Shown piece after piece: positions 9,521 through 16,767 of a DNA stretch of 64,000 nt (positions within the stretch are counted from its first letter, which is position 1; each line of letters starts with the position of its first letter). The notes under the pieces are model-generated. The model worked only from the letters and a program-made list of their open reading frames with translations. It did not search any database and was not told where the DNA came from. This DNA comes from Candidatus Uhrbacteria bacterium (GTDB taxonomy: Bacteria > Patescibacteriota > Patescibacteriia > SG8-24). Both the position numbers and the translations under genes were made by a program. Location: positions 26,918 through 90,917 of the forward strand of contig JAFGIV010000022.1 of assembly GCA_016929435.1 (NCBI GenBank). The letters run 5' to 3'.

Positions 9521-9598
9521 GGTCCCATCGTCTAGCCCGGTCCAGGACGTCTCCCTCTCACGGAGAAAACAGGGGTTCGAATCCCCTTGGGACTACCA
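9521..9598 (+). tRNA. tRNA-Glu (anticodon CUC), CCA encoded
   Basis: Hand-folded cloverleaf: acceptor GGTCCCA/TGGGACT; anticodon stem TCTCC/GGAGA with loop CTCTCAC; T arm AGGGG-TTCGAAT-CCCCT. Closely resembles bacterial tRNA-Glu (GTCCCCTTCGTCTAG...CAGGGGTTCGAATCCCCT...). Confidence 0.85.
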
Positions 9599-9602
9599 GA
9601 AG

Positions 9603-9632
9603 CACTCACCGAATGGTGGGTGTTTTTATTTT
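9603..9632 (+). terminator. rho-independent terminator after tRNA-Glu
   Basis: Stem cactcacc/ggtgggtg (one G-U) with loop gaat, then TTTTTATTTT. Confidence 0.6.
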
Positions 9633-9694
9633 GTTCGCCTTTAAAAAACCGTGATATAGTTTTTGCGTAATCTAAGGCCTGTTTTCTTGGCTAT

Positions 9695-10081
9695 ATGTCT
9701 ATATCCATAAAAAATATTTTTACCGCCCATAACAATCGAAGCGCTTCTTTTCGGAAAAAAGCTCTTGGTTATTTTCTTGTCTTTCTGGGTGCGTTTCCAG
9801 CGGTTGCATTTGCTTTAGCCTTCGTATTTTGTTTGTTCTTTCCGAATAATCACCTGATGAGGACATACATCATGGTCGATTTTGCTCTTGTCGAAGTCGT
9901 TGGCCCTATGGCATACGTGTTGCTATTGCTGTTGGCTTTGGCTGTGTTTTCTGCGCCGTTTTTCCTGTTGGTCTATATTGGCTTTCTTCTTGTTGGTTCG
10001 AAGAAAAAGAAACCGTCGGGCCAAGCCGTGCTGTTCGCGGTGTTTGCCTATTTTATCTGCTTTTCCGTTTTTTTTTTCTGA
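9695..10081 (+). CDS. small polytopic membrane protein (3-4 TM), AT-rich islet
   Basis: Hydrophobic segments; stop TGA overlaps the next ATG (TGATG), so the two are translationally coupled. Confidence 0.5.
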   Translation: MSISIKNIFTAHNNRSASFRKKALGYFLVFLGAFPAVAFALAFVFCLFFPNNHLMRTYIMVDFALVEVVGPMAYVLLLLLALAVFSAPFFLLVYIGFLLVGSKKKKPSGQAVLFAVFAYFICFSVFFF

Positions 10082-10823
10082 TGACTGAGAATCTGAATAC
10101 GAAATTTGACAGGAAAGTCTCTGGAATGAAAAGTCTTAATACTGGAATCGGGCATCCTATCTTGCCCGAATTTGATGTCATTAACATTTCCAAGTATGTG
10201 AAGTACGATGACATTGTCATTTATCAGGGAGATAGCTACGGGTACAAGTATACGGGTGATGCCTATAGCCAGATCGCCTTGGACCTTGACGTTGAAGGTC
10301 GTACTCTGTTTGTCAGGCGCTCTGAGATGGAGACCTATGTCGTACTCTGTTTGTCAGGCGCTCTGAGATGGAGACCTATTACGATGTCGAAATAGGTCAT
10401 GTGAAGAACAGGTATCCTTTATACCCGGCCGGCACCAAGAAACTGACCATCGAAATCACCGTTCCTGACCTTGACCGCATCATTGTTGAGGGTGGACATG
10501 TCAGCCTAGAGGGTTTGGAAGTGAATGACCTGCGGATTGACCTAAATAAGCGGTTCGTTGAGCTGAAAGGGGATTTGGTGGTGAGAGACGGTTTTGTCCT
10601 GAATGCTAAAGGGGGAGTGGTAGATTTGGAGGGTTCCGCAAAAAACCTAGAAATAAATTCCGGGGACTGTTGGATTGATATGGAGAATTTTACGGCTGAG
10701 ACCGCCTCAATAAACGCCGTTAACACCAGTCGTTTGAACGTTTACGTAACGGAAAACATGGAGGTCATTTCCGGGGTTAATTCTGGGATAGTCAAACATT
10801 TCGATTTCCATCAGGAAGAGTAA
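10081..10823 (+). pseudogene. putative-adhesin/beta-helix-like (DUF2807/DUF4097-like) gene split into two ORFs (10081..10395 and 10368..10823) by a frameshifting 41-bp tandem duplication
   Basis: Removing one 41-bp copy joins ...GRTLFVRRSEMETY to YDVEIGHVKNRYPLY... in frame, giving a single 233-aa protein. Confidence 0.6.
10298..10379 (+). repeat. perfect tandem duplication, 2 x 41 bp (gtcgtactctgtttgtcaggcgctctgagatggagacctat)
   Basis: Copy 10298-10338 is identical to copy 10339-10379. 41 is not a multiple of 3, so the duplication causes a frameshift. Confidence 0.95.
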
Positions 10824-10841
10824 CCGTGTTTGAAAAGACGA

Positions 10842-10953
10842 CGTTCCAGCACGAAAAGCACTACCACCCGCATCCAGCACGGGGAGGCTGTCTCCAATAG
10901 CTGGAGACGGCCTTTAAAGCCTCGAAACAAAAACACCCGAAAGGGTGTTTTTG
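10842..10953 (+). repeat. intergenic palindromic repeat element copy A (~110 bp: hairpin GGCTGTCTCCAatagcTGGAGACGGCC plus terminator CACCCgaaaGGGTG-T5)
   Basis: ~88% identical to copy B (13580..13691); the core palindrome also occurs at 12390..12428. Sits 19 nt after a stop codon. Confidence 0.85.
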
Positions 10954-11118
10954 TGTGCTGGGTTATTTTAATTGCGAAGGGGGGGTGCTTTATGGTATTG
11001 TGCAAATAACATATTTCAATCTAGAAAATAATTTTCGCTTCGTTAGTGGCGGTGCTTTATATCGTTATTCGAAGCTATGTCGAGGGAATTATTAATAATA
11101 TACTTAACCATTGCAAAT

Positions 11119-11724
11119 ATGAAAAATAATATTTTTATTAGAGTGATGTTGGCCACAATGGGCCTCTTTTCTCTATCTTTGTTCTTTTTGGTCTCCAATG
11201 TATACGCATATGTAGCAAGTGGATACACCCGCCCTTCAGGAAACGTAAGTTTTTACTTGCATGGCGCACTGGTGAATGTGGGGTGGCAGGGAGCGATAGA
11301 CAACGCTCGTAGCGAATGGAACGGGGCAGGATCTTCCTTTACGTTCTCTCAAAGCGGTACCGCTACAAGAAGCCCGAGCTTGGTTCAAAGCAGCACGACT
11401 GATGGGTATAACGACATCGGAGCACTTTCGTTGGACCTCAGTTATGTTGGATTTACATCTTCTGTTGCTAGTGGAACATCGATCATTGAAACGGACACAG
11501 CTTATAACTTGGAGAAGTCCTTTGATGTAAATCCGAATATTTATCAGTATGATGTTGAGAGTGTTGCTGTACATGAATTGGGCCACTGGTTACATTTGGA
11601 CGAAACACAGTCGTGGCGATGCTTTGCGTCTCCGCCAAGTATGTGCGGATCAGTTTCTATGGGGAGCACATATATGCGTTCTATAGAATCCGACGACATT
11701 AACGGCATTCAATATATCTATTAA
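11119..11724 (+). CDS. secreted metzincin-like zinc metalloprotease (snapalysin M7 / matrixin M10-like)
   Basis: Signal peptide MKNNIFIRVMLATMGLFSLSLFFLVSNVYA. Zinc motif VAVHELGHWLHLDE, a Cys pair, Met-turn candidate STYM and C-terminal DDINGIQYIY (matrixin DDIxGIQxLY signature). Confidence 0.6.
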   Translation: MKNNIFIRVMLATMGLFSLSLFFLVSNVYAYVASGYTRPSGNVSFYLHGALVNVGWQGAIDNARSEWNGAGSSFTFSQSGTATRSPSLVQSSTTDGYNDIGALSLDLSYVGFTSSVASGTSIIETDTAYNLEKSFDVNPNIYQYDVESVAVHELGHWLHLDETQSWRCFASPPSMCGSVSMGSTYMRSIESDDINGIQYIY

Positions 11725-11725
11725 T

Positions 11726-12337
11726 ATGAAGAAAACAACATTAATTGTAGCGGGATTGGCGGTTATAGTGTCTCTTACGACGCTGATGTACGGACTTGAT
11801 GGCAAAGACCAGGGAGGCAGCGCAACCCCACAGGGCGACGGAACGAGATTGTTGGTCAATGCCTTGCGTACAGAGCCTGATTTTAGGGTTGATACCCTTG
11901 ATTCCAGTATGATAGTTCAGGGGGAGGTGATTGCGGTCGATGAACTGTCTGACCAACCCTTAAGCCACAATACGCGTATAACCATTTCTGTCGACCAGTT
12001 GATTAAGGGGGATGATGTCAGCGAAACGATAGAGGTTTATGCGTTAGGTGGCGGCGGTGTAGAGGTTGTAGGAGATAACGAGAAAATAGGTCTTGTTGCA
12101 GGTGACGTCGGCATTTTCTTCCTTGGTTGGATGCCTGTGTCTGAAGGGTTCTACACATTTTTTGGCGGTTCAAGGGGCGTTTATGTTGAAAAGGACGCAC
12201 ATATTCGTAATTGGGGTGGAAAATCAATTAAAACTGATAGGTTTGTGCGCGAGATTGAGAAAGTGCTAGCTGACCCTGATGATAGAGAACATCAAAAGAC
12301 TTTGGGAGAGATGATCCGTGATAAGGAGTCTGAATAG
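11726..12337 (+). CDS. secreted partner protein P1 (signal peptide; paralogous to 12898..13527)
   Basis: MKKTTLIVAGLAVIVSLTTLMYG signal peptide; starts 1 nt after the protease stop. Shares the core ...V.G.VI......V.V...IKGD....TV...GG with the P2 paralog. Confidence 0.5.
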   Translation: MKKTTLIVAGLAVIVSLTTLMYGLDGKDQGGSATPQGDGTRLLVNALRTEPDFRVDTLDSSMIVQGEVIAVDELSDQPLSHNTRITISVDQLIKGDDVSETIEVYALGGGGVEVVGDNEKIGLVAGDVGIFFLGWMPVSEGFYTFFGGSRGVYVEKDAHIRNWGGKSIKTDRFVREIEKVLADPDDREHQKTLGEMIRDKESE

Positions 12338-12389
12338 AAGGTGTAAGAGGATACTACTTTTTCTTGGGACTACCACTTACATAAAGCGC

Positions 12390-12428
12390 GAGGAGGCCGT
12401 CTCCAATAGCTGGAGACGGCCGTTAGGG
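12390..12428 (+). repeat. repeat element copy C (core palindrome only, perfect 11-bp stem GGCCGTCTCCA atagc TGGAGACGGCC)
   Basis: Identical core to copy A. Lies immediately upstream of, and truncating, the second protease ORF; an in-frame TAG sits inside the repeat. Confidence 0.8.
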
Positions 12429-12430
12429 TC

Positions 12431-12895
12431 TTGTTGGTTACGCCTTTAGGTTCTGCGCTTGCTTGTTCCCAGGATTCATTGTTTTGGACTAGCGCCGTTG
12501 ATAGCGGGGAGATACGTTGGGGCGGTTCCACAAAGTATTCGTGGGAGTGGCAAGATGCGAGGGGTGCATGGAACCAGTTGAGTCCCGTTGATATTCTTCC
12601 TGATACAATATACACATATGAGGATTTAAAAATTTCGGACGTTGACAGCCATTACTTGGGATATTGGGGGGCATACATTCCTTCGTTGGGGACTGATGAT
12701 TTGGAGCTTAATGAATATTTTATGGATGGGGGCTCATACGGAAACAGGGCACATATCGTCTCTCATGAACTTGGCCGTGCTTTAGGTCTCGACCATGTTG
12801 ATGGTTGCGATCATGTGATGGATGATTATCAATATTGCACTTCAGTCACACCGTCATCAAACGATGAATGTAGCTACGATGAATTATGGAACTAG
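12431..12895 (+). CDS. degenerate paralog of the metzincin-like protease (5'-truncated, no signal peptide, zinc-motif H->R); possible pseudogene
   Basis: The ORF begins at TTG with no upstream ATG, and an in-frame stop lies in the repeat just upstream. Motif HIVSHELGRALGLDHVDGCDH is snapalysin-like HExGHxLGLxDH, but the second His is Arg (CGT where His would be CAT). Confidence 0.5.
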   Translation: MLVTPLGSALACSQDSLFWTSAVDSGEIRWGGSTKYSWEWQDARGAWNQLSPVDILPDTIYTYEDLKISDVDSHYLGYWGAYIPSLGTDDLELNEYFMDGGSYGNRAHIVSHELGRALGLDHVDGCDHVMDDYQYCTSVTPSSNDECSYDELWN

Positions 12896-12897
12896 GG

Positions 12898-13527
12898 ATG
12901 AAAGGCAAAATTATAGGCGGGGGGGTACTGCTTCTTGGCGTGCTGGGTATTGGTCTTCACGCTAATGTTTTGAGGGTGCCGGGTATTGTTAACCAGGTTG
13001 GCACTGTTGCAATCGCTAACTTTTCGGATGATGCCGAACTCGTAGGAGCGGCACATAACGTTTTTGTTGGTAAGGTAATAAAGAAACAGGACAGCTTTGT
13101 TGAGGGCAGGCTTGCCTTCACTCCTTATGAGGTTGTCGTCCTTTCCAATATCAAAGGTGATTTAGAAGGAACGGTAACGGTCCTTCAAAATGGGGGGTAT
13201 AAAGATGGGTTCTTGCAAATCTTGCATGATTCCGAATCGCCTGATGGGAGACTTCCATTTCCTGAAGTCAATCAATTATATCTGTTTTCAAGCAGACATA
13301 ATGTTGAGGCCGATGTCCACTACCTTCTTCCTACGATTCATGCTATGGAAAAGGTGAGTTCGAATACAGAATTTGGTGCCCAGGCTGACATTGCCGCCAT
13401 AACCAAGAGTGTTCGCATAGAAGAGCTGAGGGAAGCATATAAAAATGAGGTAGTTCCTTTGGCGGATAGGGAGCACGGTAGTGATTTCAATAGCTACAAT
13501 AAAACTGTACCGCAAAAGATTGAGTAG
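12898..13527 (+). CDS. secreted partner protein P2 (paralog of P1)
   Basis: Start chosen at MKGKIIGGGVLLLGVLGIGLHA (signal peptide), 3 nt after the upstream stop. Similar to P1. Confidence 0.5.
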   Translation: MKGKIIGGGVLLLGVLGIGLHANVLRVPGIVNQVGTVAIANFSDDAELVGAAHNVFVGKVIKKQDSFVEGRLAFTPYEVVVLSNIKGDLEGTVTVLQNGGYKDGFLQILHDSESPDGRLPFPEVNQLYLFSSRHNVEADVHYLLPTIHAMEKVSSNTEFGAQADIAAITKSVRIEELREAYKNEVVPLADREHGSDFNSYNKTVPQKIE

Positions 13528-13579
13528 GTTACGGGTTTGTGACAGAACTGATGTCGCACTGCCGTCTTGAAAAATCACC

Positions 13580-13691
13580 GCTCCAGCACGAAGGACACTG
13601 CCGCCCACATCCAGCACGGGGAGGTTGTCTCCACTATCTGTAAACGGCCGTTAAAGCCTCGAAACAAAAACACCCGAAAGGGTGTTTTTTG
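13580..13691 (+). repeat. repeat element copy B (~110 bp), at the islet boundary
   Basis: gctccagcacgaaggacactgccgcccacatccagcacggggaggttgtctcc...aaacacccgaaagggtgtttttt aligns to copy A; its palindrome is partly degraded. Confidence 0.85.
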
Positions 13692-13723
13692 CCTTTTTGC
13701 CGCGGTTTGTTCCAGGGTAGGCC

Positions 13724-14992
13724 CTACACCAGAAGCTCCGCGGCCCGTTGGGGGTCGGCCATCAGCTCCCGGGTCACCTCCTCCATGCGCATGCCGCGCG
13801 AACCCTTTATCAGGACGATGTCGCCGGAACGCATCCGTCCCTGGACGAACATGCCGGCCCTTTCCGTATCCGGAAAATGGAACACCTTTTCCCTGGGCAT
13901 TCCGGCCTCCAGGGCGGCCCGTTCCGTCTCTGTCGTCCTCTCCCCCACCAGAACCAACGTGTCCAGGCCGATTTCCGCCGCCTTGCGGCCGATTTCCCCG
14001 TGAAGCCCGGGTGAAGACCCCCCCAAATCGAGCATATCGCCCAAAACCGCAATGCGTCCGGACTCCGGGCCAACCGGCAGGTCCCCAAGAACGTCCAGGG
14101 CCGCGGATACGGATTTGGGGGAGGCGTTGTAGGTGTCGTCTATCAGGACCGTCCGCTTGATTCCGCCCAGACAACGGACCCTGCCGGGCAAGGGACGGAA
14201 ACTGCGGAGATTTTCGGCGATCTCCACCAGGTTCATTCCCTTGACCAGTCCCACCGCCATGCCGACCAAGGCGGCGTAGGCCACCTGACGGCCCAAAACC
14301 CCGGGAACGAACACCGGGACCGTGCTGCCGAAAGCCGATACCTTGAAACGCATGCCGCAATCCCCCTCCGGATCAAAAGCGTAGCCGAGCGATTCCGGCA
14401 GGGCGCGAACGTCGGCCTCCCCGTCAAACCCGTAGCTCACGACCCGACCGGCGGCCCTTTCCCGCATCTTCCAGACCCGCTCGTCGTCCCGGTTCAGGAT
14501 GGCCACCCCGTCCTTGCCCAAAGACTCTACCATCACCCGCTTTTCGCGAAAAACCTCGTCAATCGTCCTGAAAAGCTCCAGGTGCGATTGGGCACAGGCC
14601 GTCACCACGCCAATGGCCGGCGGGGCGATGCCGGTAAGCTTCTCGATATCCCCGGGACGATCCGCCGCCATCTCCAGCACCAGGATCGGCGGCAGTTCCG
14701 CCTTCCCGATATTGGCCCGAAACCAGGCCATAACCGCCACCTTAAGCCATTGCCAAGCGGATTTCCCCCCGCCCGGCAACCCCAAGACGGCCAAAGGCAT
14801 CCCGATTTCCGTATTCATGTTCCGGGGGCTGACCCTGATCGGAAAGCCTCCGGACAGGACGGCCCGAACCGCCTCCCTGGCCGACGTTTTTCCCACTGAA
14901 CCGGTAATCCCGATGATCTCCGGATTTCCGGACCGAATCAGGTATTTCCTGGCGCTTTTGGCCAAAAAAACCTCCAAGGACTTTCTGTACAT
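13724..14992 (-). CDS. murF: UDP-N-acetylmuramoyl-tripeptide--D-alanyl-D-alanine ligase MurF
   Basis: Mur ligase P-loop GITGSVGKTS, DDTYNASP motif and C-terminal LIKGSRGMRMEEV. Confidence 0.8.
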   Translation of the reverse strand: MYRKSLEVFLAKSARKYLIRSGNPEIIGITGSVGKTSAREAVRAVLSGGFPIRVSPRNMNTEIGMPLAVLGLPGGGKSAWQWLKVAVMAWFRANIGKAELPPILVLEMAADRPGDIEKLTGIAPPAIGVVTACAQSHLELFRTIDEVFREKRVMVESLGKDGVAILNRDDERVWKMRERAAGRVVSYGFDGEADVRALPESLGYAFDPEGDCGMRFKVSAFGSTVPVFVPGVLGRQVAYAALVGMAVGLVKGMNLVEIAENLRSFRPLPGRVRCLGGIKRTVLIDDTYNASPKSVSAALDVLGDLPVGPESGRIAVLGDMLDLGGSSPGLHGEIGRKAAEIGLDTLVLVGERTTETERAALEAGMPREKVFHFPDTERAGMFVQGRMRSGDIVLIKGSRGMRMEEVTRELMADPQRAAELLV

Positions 14993-15015
14993 ATCGTTGT
15001 CTCGGACAGGCCGGC

Positions 15016-16767
15016 CTAATACGGCCGATCGGGCGGAATCTTTATGTATTGTAGCAAAAACGATGCCAGTTCGCCAAAGAGCGGGGCTGCCGTCGATTCG
15101 GCGAAAGAAACGCCCTGGGGACTCTCTATCTTCACCAGCATGACAAAAGCCGGATCGTCCACCGGGGCAAAGCCGACGAACGTGCCGATGAACCGATCTT
15201 TGTCATACCCCCCGCCGTCAGCCCGCGCCATCTGAGCCGTGCCGGTCTTCCCCGCCACCCAATATCCGGGGACACCGGCCCGTTTGCCGTGCCCGTTCTC
15301 CACCACCTGGACCAACATGCCGCTGACCATGTCGGCGGTCCTTTTCGATACCACCTGACGAACGGACTGCGGCTCGATCCGGTTTCCGGTGCCGTCCGGA
15401 TAGCGAACCTCGGAAACGACATGGGGACGCATCAGCCGCCCCCCGTTGGCCAGGGCGCCAAAGGCGGCCACAAGCTGGATTGGGGTGGCCGTAATGCCCT
15501 GACCGTAGGAACCCGTAGTGCTCCAGATGTCCCCGCGTTTCCGGAGGGAAGAGATGTCCCCGGCGGTTTCGGCGGCGATTTCCACGCCGGTCGGCTGACC
15601 GAAACCGAACGCCTCCACGTACTCGAGGAAACGGTCGGGTCCCAGTTCCCGGACCGCAAAAATCGCCCCGGTGTTCAGGGACTTCTCCAGGACCTGGGTC
15701 ATGGTCTGCCGGCCGTTAGCCTTACCGTCGGAATTGCTGATCGTGTAGGGACCGATCTTCACCTGACCGGTATCCTCATAGGTGGTGTTCGGGGACACCT
15801 TACCGGCGTCTATTGCCGCCGCCATCGTCAGGGGCTTCATGACCGAACCCGGCTCATAGGCATGATAGGTGGCCGGATTGTTGAAGACCGACATGTCCCT
15901 GACGGACGAGTAGTCGTTGGGGTCAAAATCCGGATAGCCGCAGACCGCCAATAGGCGGCCGGTATCCGGCTCCATCACCACGACCGAACCGCCAACGGCC
16001 TGAAAACCGATGACCGCCTCCCGCAGTTTGGAGCAGGCCACGAACTGGATGCTGCGGTCAACCGTAAGGACGATATCCGCCCCGTCCTGGGCCGGTCGGA
16101 AACCGCTGCCGCCGACCGCCACCCCATCGGTCGAATTGCCCCTTGAATCCAGGTAACCGGCCTGTCCGGAAAGCTCCGTGTTCCAGTACCCCTCCACCCC
16201 ATACCGACCGACCAGGTTTCCGCCCTCGTCCGAACCCACGAAGCCGGTCAGGTGACAGGCCGTTTCGGACTCCGGATAAAAGCGGAAGGATTGGGGACTG
16301 AATGCAATCCCCCTGACCTTCAGGCTACGCAGCCTCTCGACCGTATCCTCATCCAACCGGGACTTCAGGGGAACGTAGGGGTCGTCCTCCACCCCCAATT
16401 TCCCGTCCAAAACCGGCTCGTCAATACCGAGGATCGGCGACAGGGCCCGGACGGCCGCTTCCCGATCGGCCGGCTCCATCTTCCTGGTGTCGGCGTAGGC
16501 CGTATACATGGTCTTGTTCACGGCCACCGGAAACCGGCCGTCCGGGGAATCCGGATCCGCCAGGAACACCCCTCCCCTTTCCGGAAAAAGCTCGCGGAAA
16601 ATGTCGTGCTGATCCGATGCCAGGGCCGAATAGAACGAGTGCGAGATGACCTGGATATGGAACAGCCTACCGGCCAATACGGCCGCCGAAACGGCCAGGA
16701 TCACCCGAAGGAAAACCATCCGCCCGGCAAACGGGTCCGGCATTCGCCTGATACCGAACCGCCTCAT
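15016..16767 (-). CDS. ftsI: peptidoglycan D,D-transpeptidase (PBP2/FtsI family)
   Basis: N-terminal TM helix, a KSLNTG-like motif and the KTGTAQ transpeptidase motif. Confidence 0.8.
   Translation of the reverse strand: MRRFGIRRMPDPFAGRMVFLRVILAVSAAVLAGRLFHIQVISHSFYSALASDQHDIFRELFPERGGVFLADPDSPDGRFPVAVNKTMYTAYADTRKMEPADREAAVRALSPILGIDEPVLDGKLGVEDDPYVPLKSRLDEDTVERLRSLKVRGIAFSPQSFRFYPESETACHLTGFVGSDEGGNLVGRYGVEGYWNTELSGQAGYLDSRGNSTDGVAVGGSGFRPAQDGADIVLTVDRSIQFVACSKLREAVIGFQAVGGSVVVMEPDTGRLLAVCGYPDFDPNDYSSVRDMSVFNNPATYHAYEPGSVMKPLTMAAAIDAGKVSPNTTYEDTGQVKIGPYTISNSDGKANGRQTMTQVLEKSLNTGAIFAVRELGPDRFLEYVEAFGFGQPTGVEIAAETAGDISSLRKRGDIWSTTGSYGQGITATPIQLVAAFGALANGGRLMRPHVVSEVRYPDGTGNRIEPQSVRQVVSKRTADMVSGMLVQVVENGHGKRAGVPGYWVAGKTGTAQMARADGGGYDKDRFIGTFVGFAPVDDPAFVMLVKIESPQGVSFAESTAAPLFGELASFLLQYIKIPPDRPY

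Follow-up and report, generated by a model that had tools for sequence, protein, structure and literature searches.

Two diverged metzincin–partner modules in a Candidatus Uhrbacteria genome, one with a recently inactivated protease beside an intact partner of predicted TIMP-like fold

The pairing of a bacterial metzincin with a TIMP-like protein has previously been described in one study only, for the Mtz–Tim pair of Listeria monocytogenes (LMRG_00713/LMRG_00714; Boichis et al. 2021, PMC8235301). The small metzincin Mtz is secreted and cuts Tim, a TIMP-like lipoprotein, about 50 residues from the N-terminal end; the fragment set free makes the cell wall more sensitive to lysins and antibiotics. 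The authors noted similar pairs near mobile elements in other Firmicutes and found no bacterial TIMP-like protein on record before theirs (PMC8235301). In the literature we found no paper tying such pairs to Patescibacteria. Here we analyse a stretch of 64,000 nucleotides from Candidatus Uhrbacteria bacterium (candidate phyla radiation (CPR)/Patescibacteria; assembly GCA_016929435.1, contig JAFGIV010000022.1), hereafter the window, in which two modules, each a metzincin gene followed by the gene of a partner protein, stand in tandem (Table 1). Protease 2 has just been inactivated by two lesions, the loss of its 5′ end with the signal peptide and a CAT to CGT change in the zinc motif, and partner 2 behind it is intact. 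The window offers a natural comparison of an intact module with a neighbouring one whose protease is freshly inactivated.

Two disabling lesions in protease 2, and an intact protease 1

Protease 2 is related to snapalysin. The snapalysin structure 1c7k from PDB aligns to it across the mature domain, if weakly (E 0.003), including the conserved Met and the Cys pair downstream of the zinc motif; the NCBIfam snapalysin model NF033628 gives 12.5 bits, far under its cut-off of 300, and an EIRWGGST motif marks the protein as a family of its own. Twelve relatives from metagenomes, CPR genomes and a plasmid served for comparison. All 12 have an N-terminal signal peptide and HE.GH, with an N-terminus about 20 amino acids longer than that of the window protein, and among the 25 columns that are invariant in them protease 2 deviates at two, the initiator Met and His116, which is replaced by Arg. 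The zinc motif reads HELGRALGLDH, with Arg at the second zinc-ligand His. Because the codon at this position is CAT in 10 of 11 relatives, CGT represents a single A to G transition.

No upstream start or signal peptide for protease 2 was found in any frame, and TAG 12407–12409, in the loop of the repeat C hairpin (Table 1), and a further in-frame stop lie upstream. Rescue by an upstream start, a frameshift or stop-codon read-through was considered and is ruled out by these two stops and by the lack of a signal-peptide frame. A lipoprotein signal was rejected as well, since SALAC makes a poor lipobox and, in the relatives, the homologous Cys comes after a type I cleavage site. The independently assembled Logan contig L001 (run SRR13394437) is 100% identical to the window over 10923–13680 (2,758 bp), both lesions included, which excludes an assembler error and leaves room for population heterogeneity.

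It is improbable that the gene is a retained, non-exported pseudo-enzyme starting from TTG 12431, for example a zinc-free binder of partner 2, or that the lesions are minority variants or artefacts. Its frame is still open, 23 of the 25 family-invariant positions are retained, and both assemblies probably come from one sample; however, an open frame is equally expected after very recent inactivation, and two independent assemblers agree base for base. Furthermore, both lesions hit features essential to a secreted metzincin and neither occurs in any relative, and a cytoplasmic remnant would not meet an outward-facing partner. An earlier note on this DNA, made from the letters alone, had described the loss of the 5′ end and signal peptide at repeat C with an in-frame TAG, and the change of the second zinc-binding His to Arg by one A to G exchange; both descriptions hold, as start and signal are present in 12/12 relatives and the Arg is unique among them. 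The pseudogenisation of the pair that it proposed, as an alternative to subfunctionalisation, applies to protease 2 but not to partner 2, which retains all residues invariant in its family.

Protease 1 is intact, as had also been claimed, with a Sec-type signal peptide (MKNNIFIRVMLATMGLFSLSLFFLVSNVYA, cleaved before YVASGY), a Pfam M10 match above the cut-off and a C-terminal DDINGIQYIY. Matrix metalloproteinase (MMP) catalytic domains align to it, the C-terminal motif corresponding to DDLQGIQKIY of MMP-16. Its zinc motif HELGHWLHLDE is a variant, HExxHxxHxxE as compared with HExxHxxGxxH/D, with His for Gly and Glu for the third His, and the variant is kept in the 58%-identical homologue of locus L010. 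By analogy with snapalysin, which uses Asp, zinc binding via Glu or Asp may be possible. A cysteine-switch pro-peptide (PRCGxPD) is absent from the translation, and the mature protein begins right behind the signal peptide. In both modules the partner gene starts within the 1–3 nt of the protease stop given in the earlier note: ATG 11726 of partner 1 is 1 nt past TAA 11722–11724, and ATG 12898 of partner 2 is 2 nt past TAG 12893–12895.

The partner family: predicted fold, linkage and possible role

Both partners are about 205 amino acids long and have hydrophobic N-termini. For partner 2, AlphaFold2 with an 8-sequence alignment gave a confident core at residues ~45–185 (predicted local distance difference test (pLDDT) about 85–90), the model consisting of the hydrophobic N-terminus, a disordered linker, a beta barrel and then helices. 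The top fold matches listed were Agrin NtA (score 10.0; 106 residues, 2.5 Å), PCOLCE NTR (8.9), N-TIMP-3 from its TACE complex (8.8), Complement C3 C345C (8.8), Meteorin NTR (8.3) and TIMP-1 (8.2). An oligonucleotide/oligosaccharide-binding (OB) barrel plus helices, the arrangement of the TIMP/NTR module, is present in the predicted structures of the partners. These models suggest that the partner has a TIMP-like fold but is not a TIMP. The partner could also be a generic surface OB-fold protein, such as a chaperone, anchor or adaptor, whose TIMP/NTR likeness is fold convergence and uninformative on inhibition, and its lack of cysteines and of sequence similarity to TIMP/NTR proteins would suit such a protein. 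We consider this unlikely, as the first ranks go to NTR/TIMP domains, whose alignments are longer by about 30 residues and take in the helices, the model of partner 1 independently gives the same top match, and the partners are consistently linked to metzincins, the binding targets of TIMPs.

The family is large, is almost always linked to a metzincin gene and has no Pfam model. Searched against 1.84 billion cluster representatives, the partner 2 profile retrieved 1,560 relatives at E ≤ 1e-3 and 242 at E ≤ 1e-30, ranging from plasmids of Bacillales and Actinomycetes to ultrasmall, host-dependent Patescibacteria. Members were found in Falkowbacteria, Azambacteria, Saccharibacteria and other Patescibacteria, and on plasmids of Exiguobacterium, Niallia, Rhodococcus fascians and Gordonia; lipoboxes are present in the partners from the last two. 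The pair also occurs in a record that bears the label Listeria phage (OR848502.1, UNVERIFIED_ORG; partner profile E 2e-21) and is not the 10403S locus. There was no match in phage genomes by tblastn with partner 2 and an intact relative of protease 2, nor in viral contigs scanned with the partner profile, and a fold search of BFVD with the partner returned generic OB folds only, none at E ≤ 0.001. NCBIfam and PHROGs scans gave no match for the partners. The statement that the partner family is uncharacterised goes too far, as a metzincin/TIMP-like pair has been studied in Listeria (PMC8235301).

Linkage to metzincins was counted over the 21 partner-2-type loci that could be judged, whose hosts are Patescibacteria, Bacillales and Actinomycetes and several of which are plasmid-borne. 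The partner follows a metzincin gene in 18 of them: an intact gene, in some cases for a multidomain protease, lies directly upstream or within two genes in 15 loci, the upstream gene is disabled in three, and the last three have no metzincin gene. The window's order, with the partner directly behind the protease, is also seen in L005, L007, L010, L016, L018–L020, L025, L027, L028 and L031. The disabled proteases are window protease 2, the gene of L002 (L002:10001–10560, GCA_003056085.1), which has a frameshift inside the motif between HELGH and ALGLDH and yields the same protein in three samples, and a Niallia plasmid gene (L029:2321–2758, NZ_CP095745.1), which is truncated by a stop directly after HELVMLLV; the partners of the latter two are likewise intact. 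The orphan partners without a metzincin nearby (L017:3968–4576; L013:3815–4429, in L013/L014; L033:2345–3004, on Gordonia pKB1) have GroEL, a SpoU methylase and an unrelated plasmid gene as neighbours. Partner-1-type genes occur with a protease in P0016 loci (L010) and without one in P0017 loci.

Several loci depart from the simple two-gene module. One has two tandem partner genes behind one protease (L015:4186–5464), and some single proteins contain two or three partner domains in series (P0020, P0021). Elsewhere a partner homologue follows a multidomain protease of 420–926 aa with a C-terminal metzincin domain (L021:1131–4274, L022:954–4648, L024:948–4615, L030:1592–3654), which in Rhodococcus fascians has repetitive sequence ahead of the catalytic domain; since multidomain proteases also precede partners, the linkage is independent of protease architecture. 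On an Exiguobacterium plasmid (L028:1408–3477, NZ_CP081879.1) a divergent helix-turn-helix regulator stands beside the pair and recalls the cI/cro-type switch of Listeria mtz-tim. A linker motif, N.IKLP/NALRTEP, came into question as an inhibitory trunk at the N-terminus of the family at large; since only 11 of the 157 family members have it, a general role was discarded.

With slightly better than even confidence, we read the partner as a tethered inhibitor or self-protection factor for the secreted metzincin. Both genes of a module would be co-transcribed and the protease exported, and the partner, on the outer membrane face, would bind the catalytic domain of the protease, which may clip it from its anchor as happens to Listeria Tim. 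An inhibitor or immunity role is favoured because partners repeatedly survive beside dead or absent proteases; repeated loss of the protease while the partner stays intact is what one would expect if the partner gene served inhibition or immunity. With no terminator remaining between the modules, partner 2 would depend for its transcription solely on read-through from module 1. It is presumably retained as an orphan that inhibits or partners either protease 1 or related proteases from other cells. The earlier note had suggested a cognate inhibitor, chaperone or immunity partner, and it is the inhibitor/immunity part of that idea that gains from the TIMP/NTR-like predicted fold and from the adjacency conserved in many other genomes and plasmids. 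The recurrent loss of the protease offers a concrete way into testing how these proteases of the cell surface are controlled.

Several observations weigh against this reading. Neither window partner matches any Pfam model at E ≤ 1, TIMP PF00965 and NTR PF01759 included; an NTR match appears in one of eight partner family members, at a non-passing E of 0.24; and the partner profile run against PDB sequences retrieves no TIMP, only spurious KH-domain matches. Partner 1 has a poor model (pLDDT 51), because its family is tiny, with four members found. TIMPs act through an N-terminal Cys1 that chelates the zinc and through a disulfide-braced ridge. Cys is absent from both partners and from 105 of 157 family representatives, and this mechanism as such cannot apply, because most family members lack the residue. 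Survival of the partner could equally mean that it works with a protease encoded elsewhere, which here would be protease 1. Finally, Listeria Tim itself is a substrate and released factor, not an inhibitor (PMC8235301).

This precedent leads to a rival that is possible but clearly less probable than not, namely that the partner is a substrate or pro-factor which the metzincin clips off, the fragment acting on the cell wall or a host cell, either by itself or together with the protease. Beyond the direct experimental precedent of Tim (PMC8235301), the anatomy matches, with an anchor, a linker of ~40–50 residues and a folded core from about residue 45, and so do cell-wall neighbourhoods, with murF/ftsI in the window, mraZ-ftsI-murF in L010 and LysM and M23 genes near the L002 locus. 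On the other hand, orphan partners and partners beside broken proteases are harder to explain by a pro-factor, though protease 1 could serve partner 2, and with the N.IKLP linker motif so rare no general cleavage site is evident. As an observation apart, the protease 1/partner 1 pair lies beside a division and cell-wall cluster in two genomes, just upstream of mraZ-rsmH-ftsL-ftsI-murF in L010 (L010:1818–8203) and just downstream of murF in the window (11119–16767); this adjacency could be chance or be tied to the cell-wall phenotype of the Listeria pair.

Relation of the modules, the repeats and the island

The earlier note took the two modules for a duplicated cassette. Its claim that the proteases, and likewise the partners, are paralogues is right as to homology, with the qualification that the similarity is remote. 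The two proteases share 23% identity (BLASTP E 0.004). The partners show no similarity to each other by BLASTP (E 1.2), and a plain hidden Markov model of the partner 2 family does not reach window partner 1; they are linked only by profile–profile comparison, with a probability of 34% and E 4.3e-4 for small profiles, and with 74.8% and E 2.6e-5 over 111 collinear columns when hhalign was run with an enlarged partner 2 profile (124 sequences). For each gene much closer relatives exist elsewhere, with identities of 58% between protease 1 and L010, 67–69% between protease 2 and P0002, 52% between partner 1 and P0016, and 53% between partner 2 and P0008. Because the proteases are so divergent, the partners match by profile only and relatives at 52–69% lie in other genomes, we conclude from sequence comparison that the modules are anciently diverged paralogues brought together in an imported island, and not a recent duplication.

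A local tandem duplication whose second copy was pseudogenised by insertion of a palindromic repeat into its 5′ end is very improbable. It would account for the tandem arrangement with the same orientation and gene order, for the homology of both gene pairs and for the two disabling lesions of protease 2. Against it stand the same low similarities, as well as the relatives in other organisms, which imply that any duplication long predates the island in this genome; moreover, partner 2 is not decaying. The repeats also speak against it. Repeats A and B, of 123 nt each (direct-repeat family D1/D2), each consist of a 13-bp-stem hairpin and then a terminator-type hairpin, and repeat A folds with −59.9 kcal/mol (z −6.6). 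Repeat C corresponds to the first ~57–65 nt only, without the terminator hairpin, and leads straight into codon ~20 of protease 2; no terminator-like site was found between the two modules. Searches of the rest of the window, the fetched related loci and metagenome contigs turned up no additional copy of the repeat, and with none found outside the island there is no sign that the repeat is mobile.

Because repeat C is partial, lacks the terminator half and runs directly into the gene, the truncation of protease 2 reads better as a deletion from mid-repeat to about codon 20 than as the repeat insertion proposed earlier. A single deletion would explain why terminator, promoter region and start codon are all gone and little of the signal peptide is left. 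It counts against this history that it is deduced from the repeat architecture and not from an ancestral sequence. Rfam gave no match for the repeats at a permissive threshold. Integron attC sites were also considered; such sites are imperfect palindromes with R″/R′ core sites (RYYYAAC...GTTRRRY) and a nearby intI gene. The repeats have a perfect 11–13-bp stem flanked by GTTAGGG, GTTAAAG or TTTAAAG, no matching R″ site and no integrase open reading frame in the island, and the candidate was rejected. Separately, repeats A and B bracket a 2.7-kb block that contains both modules, and the Logan contig L001 starts and ends within their terminator hairpins; recombination between such repeats may have brought the block in or rearranged it.

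The island spans ~9600–13700, with a GC content of 0.40–0.49 compared with 0.56–0.64 outside, the fall from 0.54–0.60 coming directly after the tRNA. Its right border is the terminator before the convergent murF-ftsI genes (GC 0.61–0.64 beyond 13700), and its order is a small membrane protein, a split DUF2807 gene, repeat A, protease 1, partner 1, repeat C, protease 2, partner 2 and repeat B. The GC profile and the adjacent tRNA suggest that the island was horizontally acquired. Two absences count against import: there is no integrase or phage gene among the open reading frames of the low-GC island, and no att-like duplication of at least 14 nt at it. The NCBI protein JW899_04320 of Candidatus Uhrbacteria matches partner 1 with 100% identity. 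Within the same island, the DUF2807 (toastrack/GIN-like) gene is split into open reading frames 10081–10395 and 10368–10823 by an exact 41-nt tandem duplication (10298–10338 = 10339–10379), and without one of the copies the gene reads as one frame of 233 aa. The duplication may be a newly arisen frameshift mutation or may serve as an on/off switch.

Table 1. Features of the low-GC island and its borders, in window coordinates
Feature	Position	Strand	Remarks
tRNA-Glu(CTC)	9521..9598	+	ARAGORN and Rfam; left border of the low-GC island
Small membrane protein	9695-10081		First gene of the island
Repeat A	10830..10952	+	13-bp-stem hairpin 10886-10913, then terminator-type hairpin AAAAACACCCGAAAGGGTGTTTTT 10929-10952
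Protease 1	11119..11724	+	Secreted matrixin-like metzincin, intact; Pfam PF00413 27.4 bits (gathering score 24), E 3.7e-6
Partner 1	11726..12337	+	N-terminal transmembrane anchor, beta-rich core, C-terminal helices; distant relative of partner 2
Repeat C	12369..12433	+	Partial copy of the A/B repeat; 84% identical to A over 57 nt; hairpin 12394-12421 only
Protease 2	12431..12895	+	Snapalysin-like small metzincin, recently inactivated; TTG 12431 the sole possible start; 154 open codons
CGT (Arg116)	12776..12778	+	Second zinc-ligand His of HExxH; His in 12/12 relatives; identical in the Logan assembly
Partner 2	12898..13527	+	Intact; N-terminal hydrophobic anchor/signal, predicted TIMP/NTR-like OB-fold core ~residues 45-160, C-terminal helices
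Repeat B	13567..13689	+	86% identical to A; bidirectional terminator 13666-13689 between partner 2 and murF
murF	13724-14992	-	Convergent with partner 2

Comparison with known systems

Both proteases share the HExxH zinc site with the matrixins (M10) and snapalysin (M7). Protease 1 additionally has DDxxGIQxxY, and protease 2 is a small single domain with a Met past the zinc motif. Protease 1 differs from matrixins in having HExxHxxHxxE instead of HExxHxxGxxH, and protease 2 differs from M7 in falling far below the NF033628 cut-off and forming the EIRWGGST family. A bacterial metzincin that is encoded with, or held in check by, a dedicated protein inhibitor is also known from the serralysin–inhibitor operons (AprA/AprI and PrtA/Inh; MEROPS I38) and from snapalysin–sermetstatin (PDB 4hx3). 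The I38 inhibitors form 8-stranded barrels in the periplasm, and sermetstatin belongs to the SSI family; neither kind is among the top fold matches listed for the partner.

With animal TIMPs (MEROPS I35) and NTR modules, the partners share genetic pairing with matrixin-like metzincins, the target class of TIMPs. They differ in having no sequence similarity, N-terminal Cys1 or disulfides, in an N-terminus that would lie in the membrane unless processed, and in a C-terminal helical tail instead of the TIMP C-domain. The partner family may bear on the origin of the TIMP/NTR fold. It is doubtful that it is a true, if very distant, TIMP/NTR homologue; were it one, the matrixin-like protease with its TIMP-like binder would be an ancient mobile prokaryotic unit, widespread in monoderms including CPR and the source or sister of the animal MMP–TIMP system, with the orphans serving as immunity against proteases of competitors or hosts.

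The closest known system is Mtz–Tim. The window differs from it in its CPR/Patescibacteria host, in a transmembrane or signal segment as anchor where Listeria has a lipobox, in having no cI/cro-type switch and no match in phage collections, and in its two divergent tandem modules, one with a dead protease. The likenesses are a small Sec-secreted metzincin (catalytic Glu near residue 136 in Listeria) with the partner directly behind it and without a promoter of its own, an N-terminal membrane anchor, and a TIMP-like domain beginning ~50 residues in, compared with a core from about residue 45 in the window. In both systems fold comparison points to TIMP. The Listeria-type pairs occur across Gram-positive bacteria, on or near mobile elements; such an association may hold here too, with the low-GC island beside a tRNA and the plasmid-borne relatives for it, and the lack of integrase and phage genes in the island and of viral-contig matches against it. 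Judged by this shared anatomy, the two window modules would be members of the Mtz–Tim kind.

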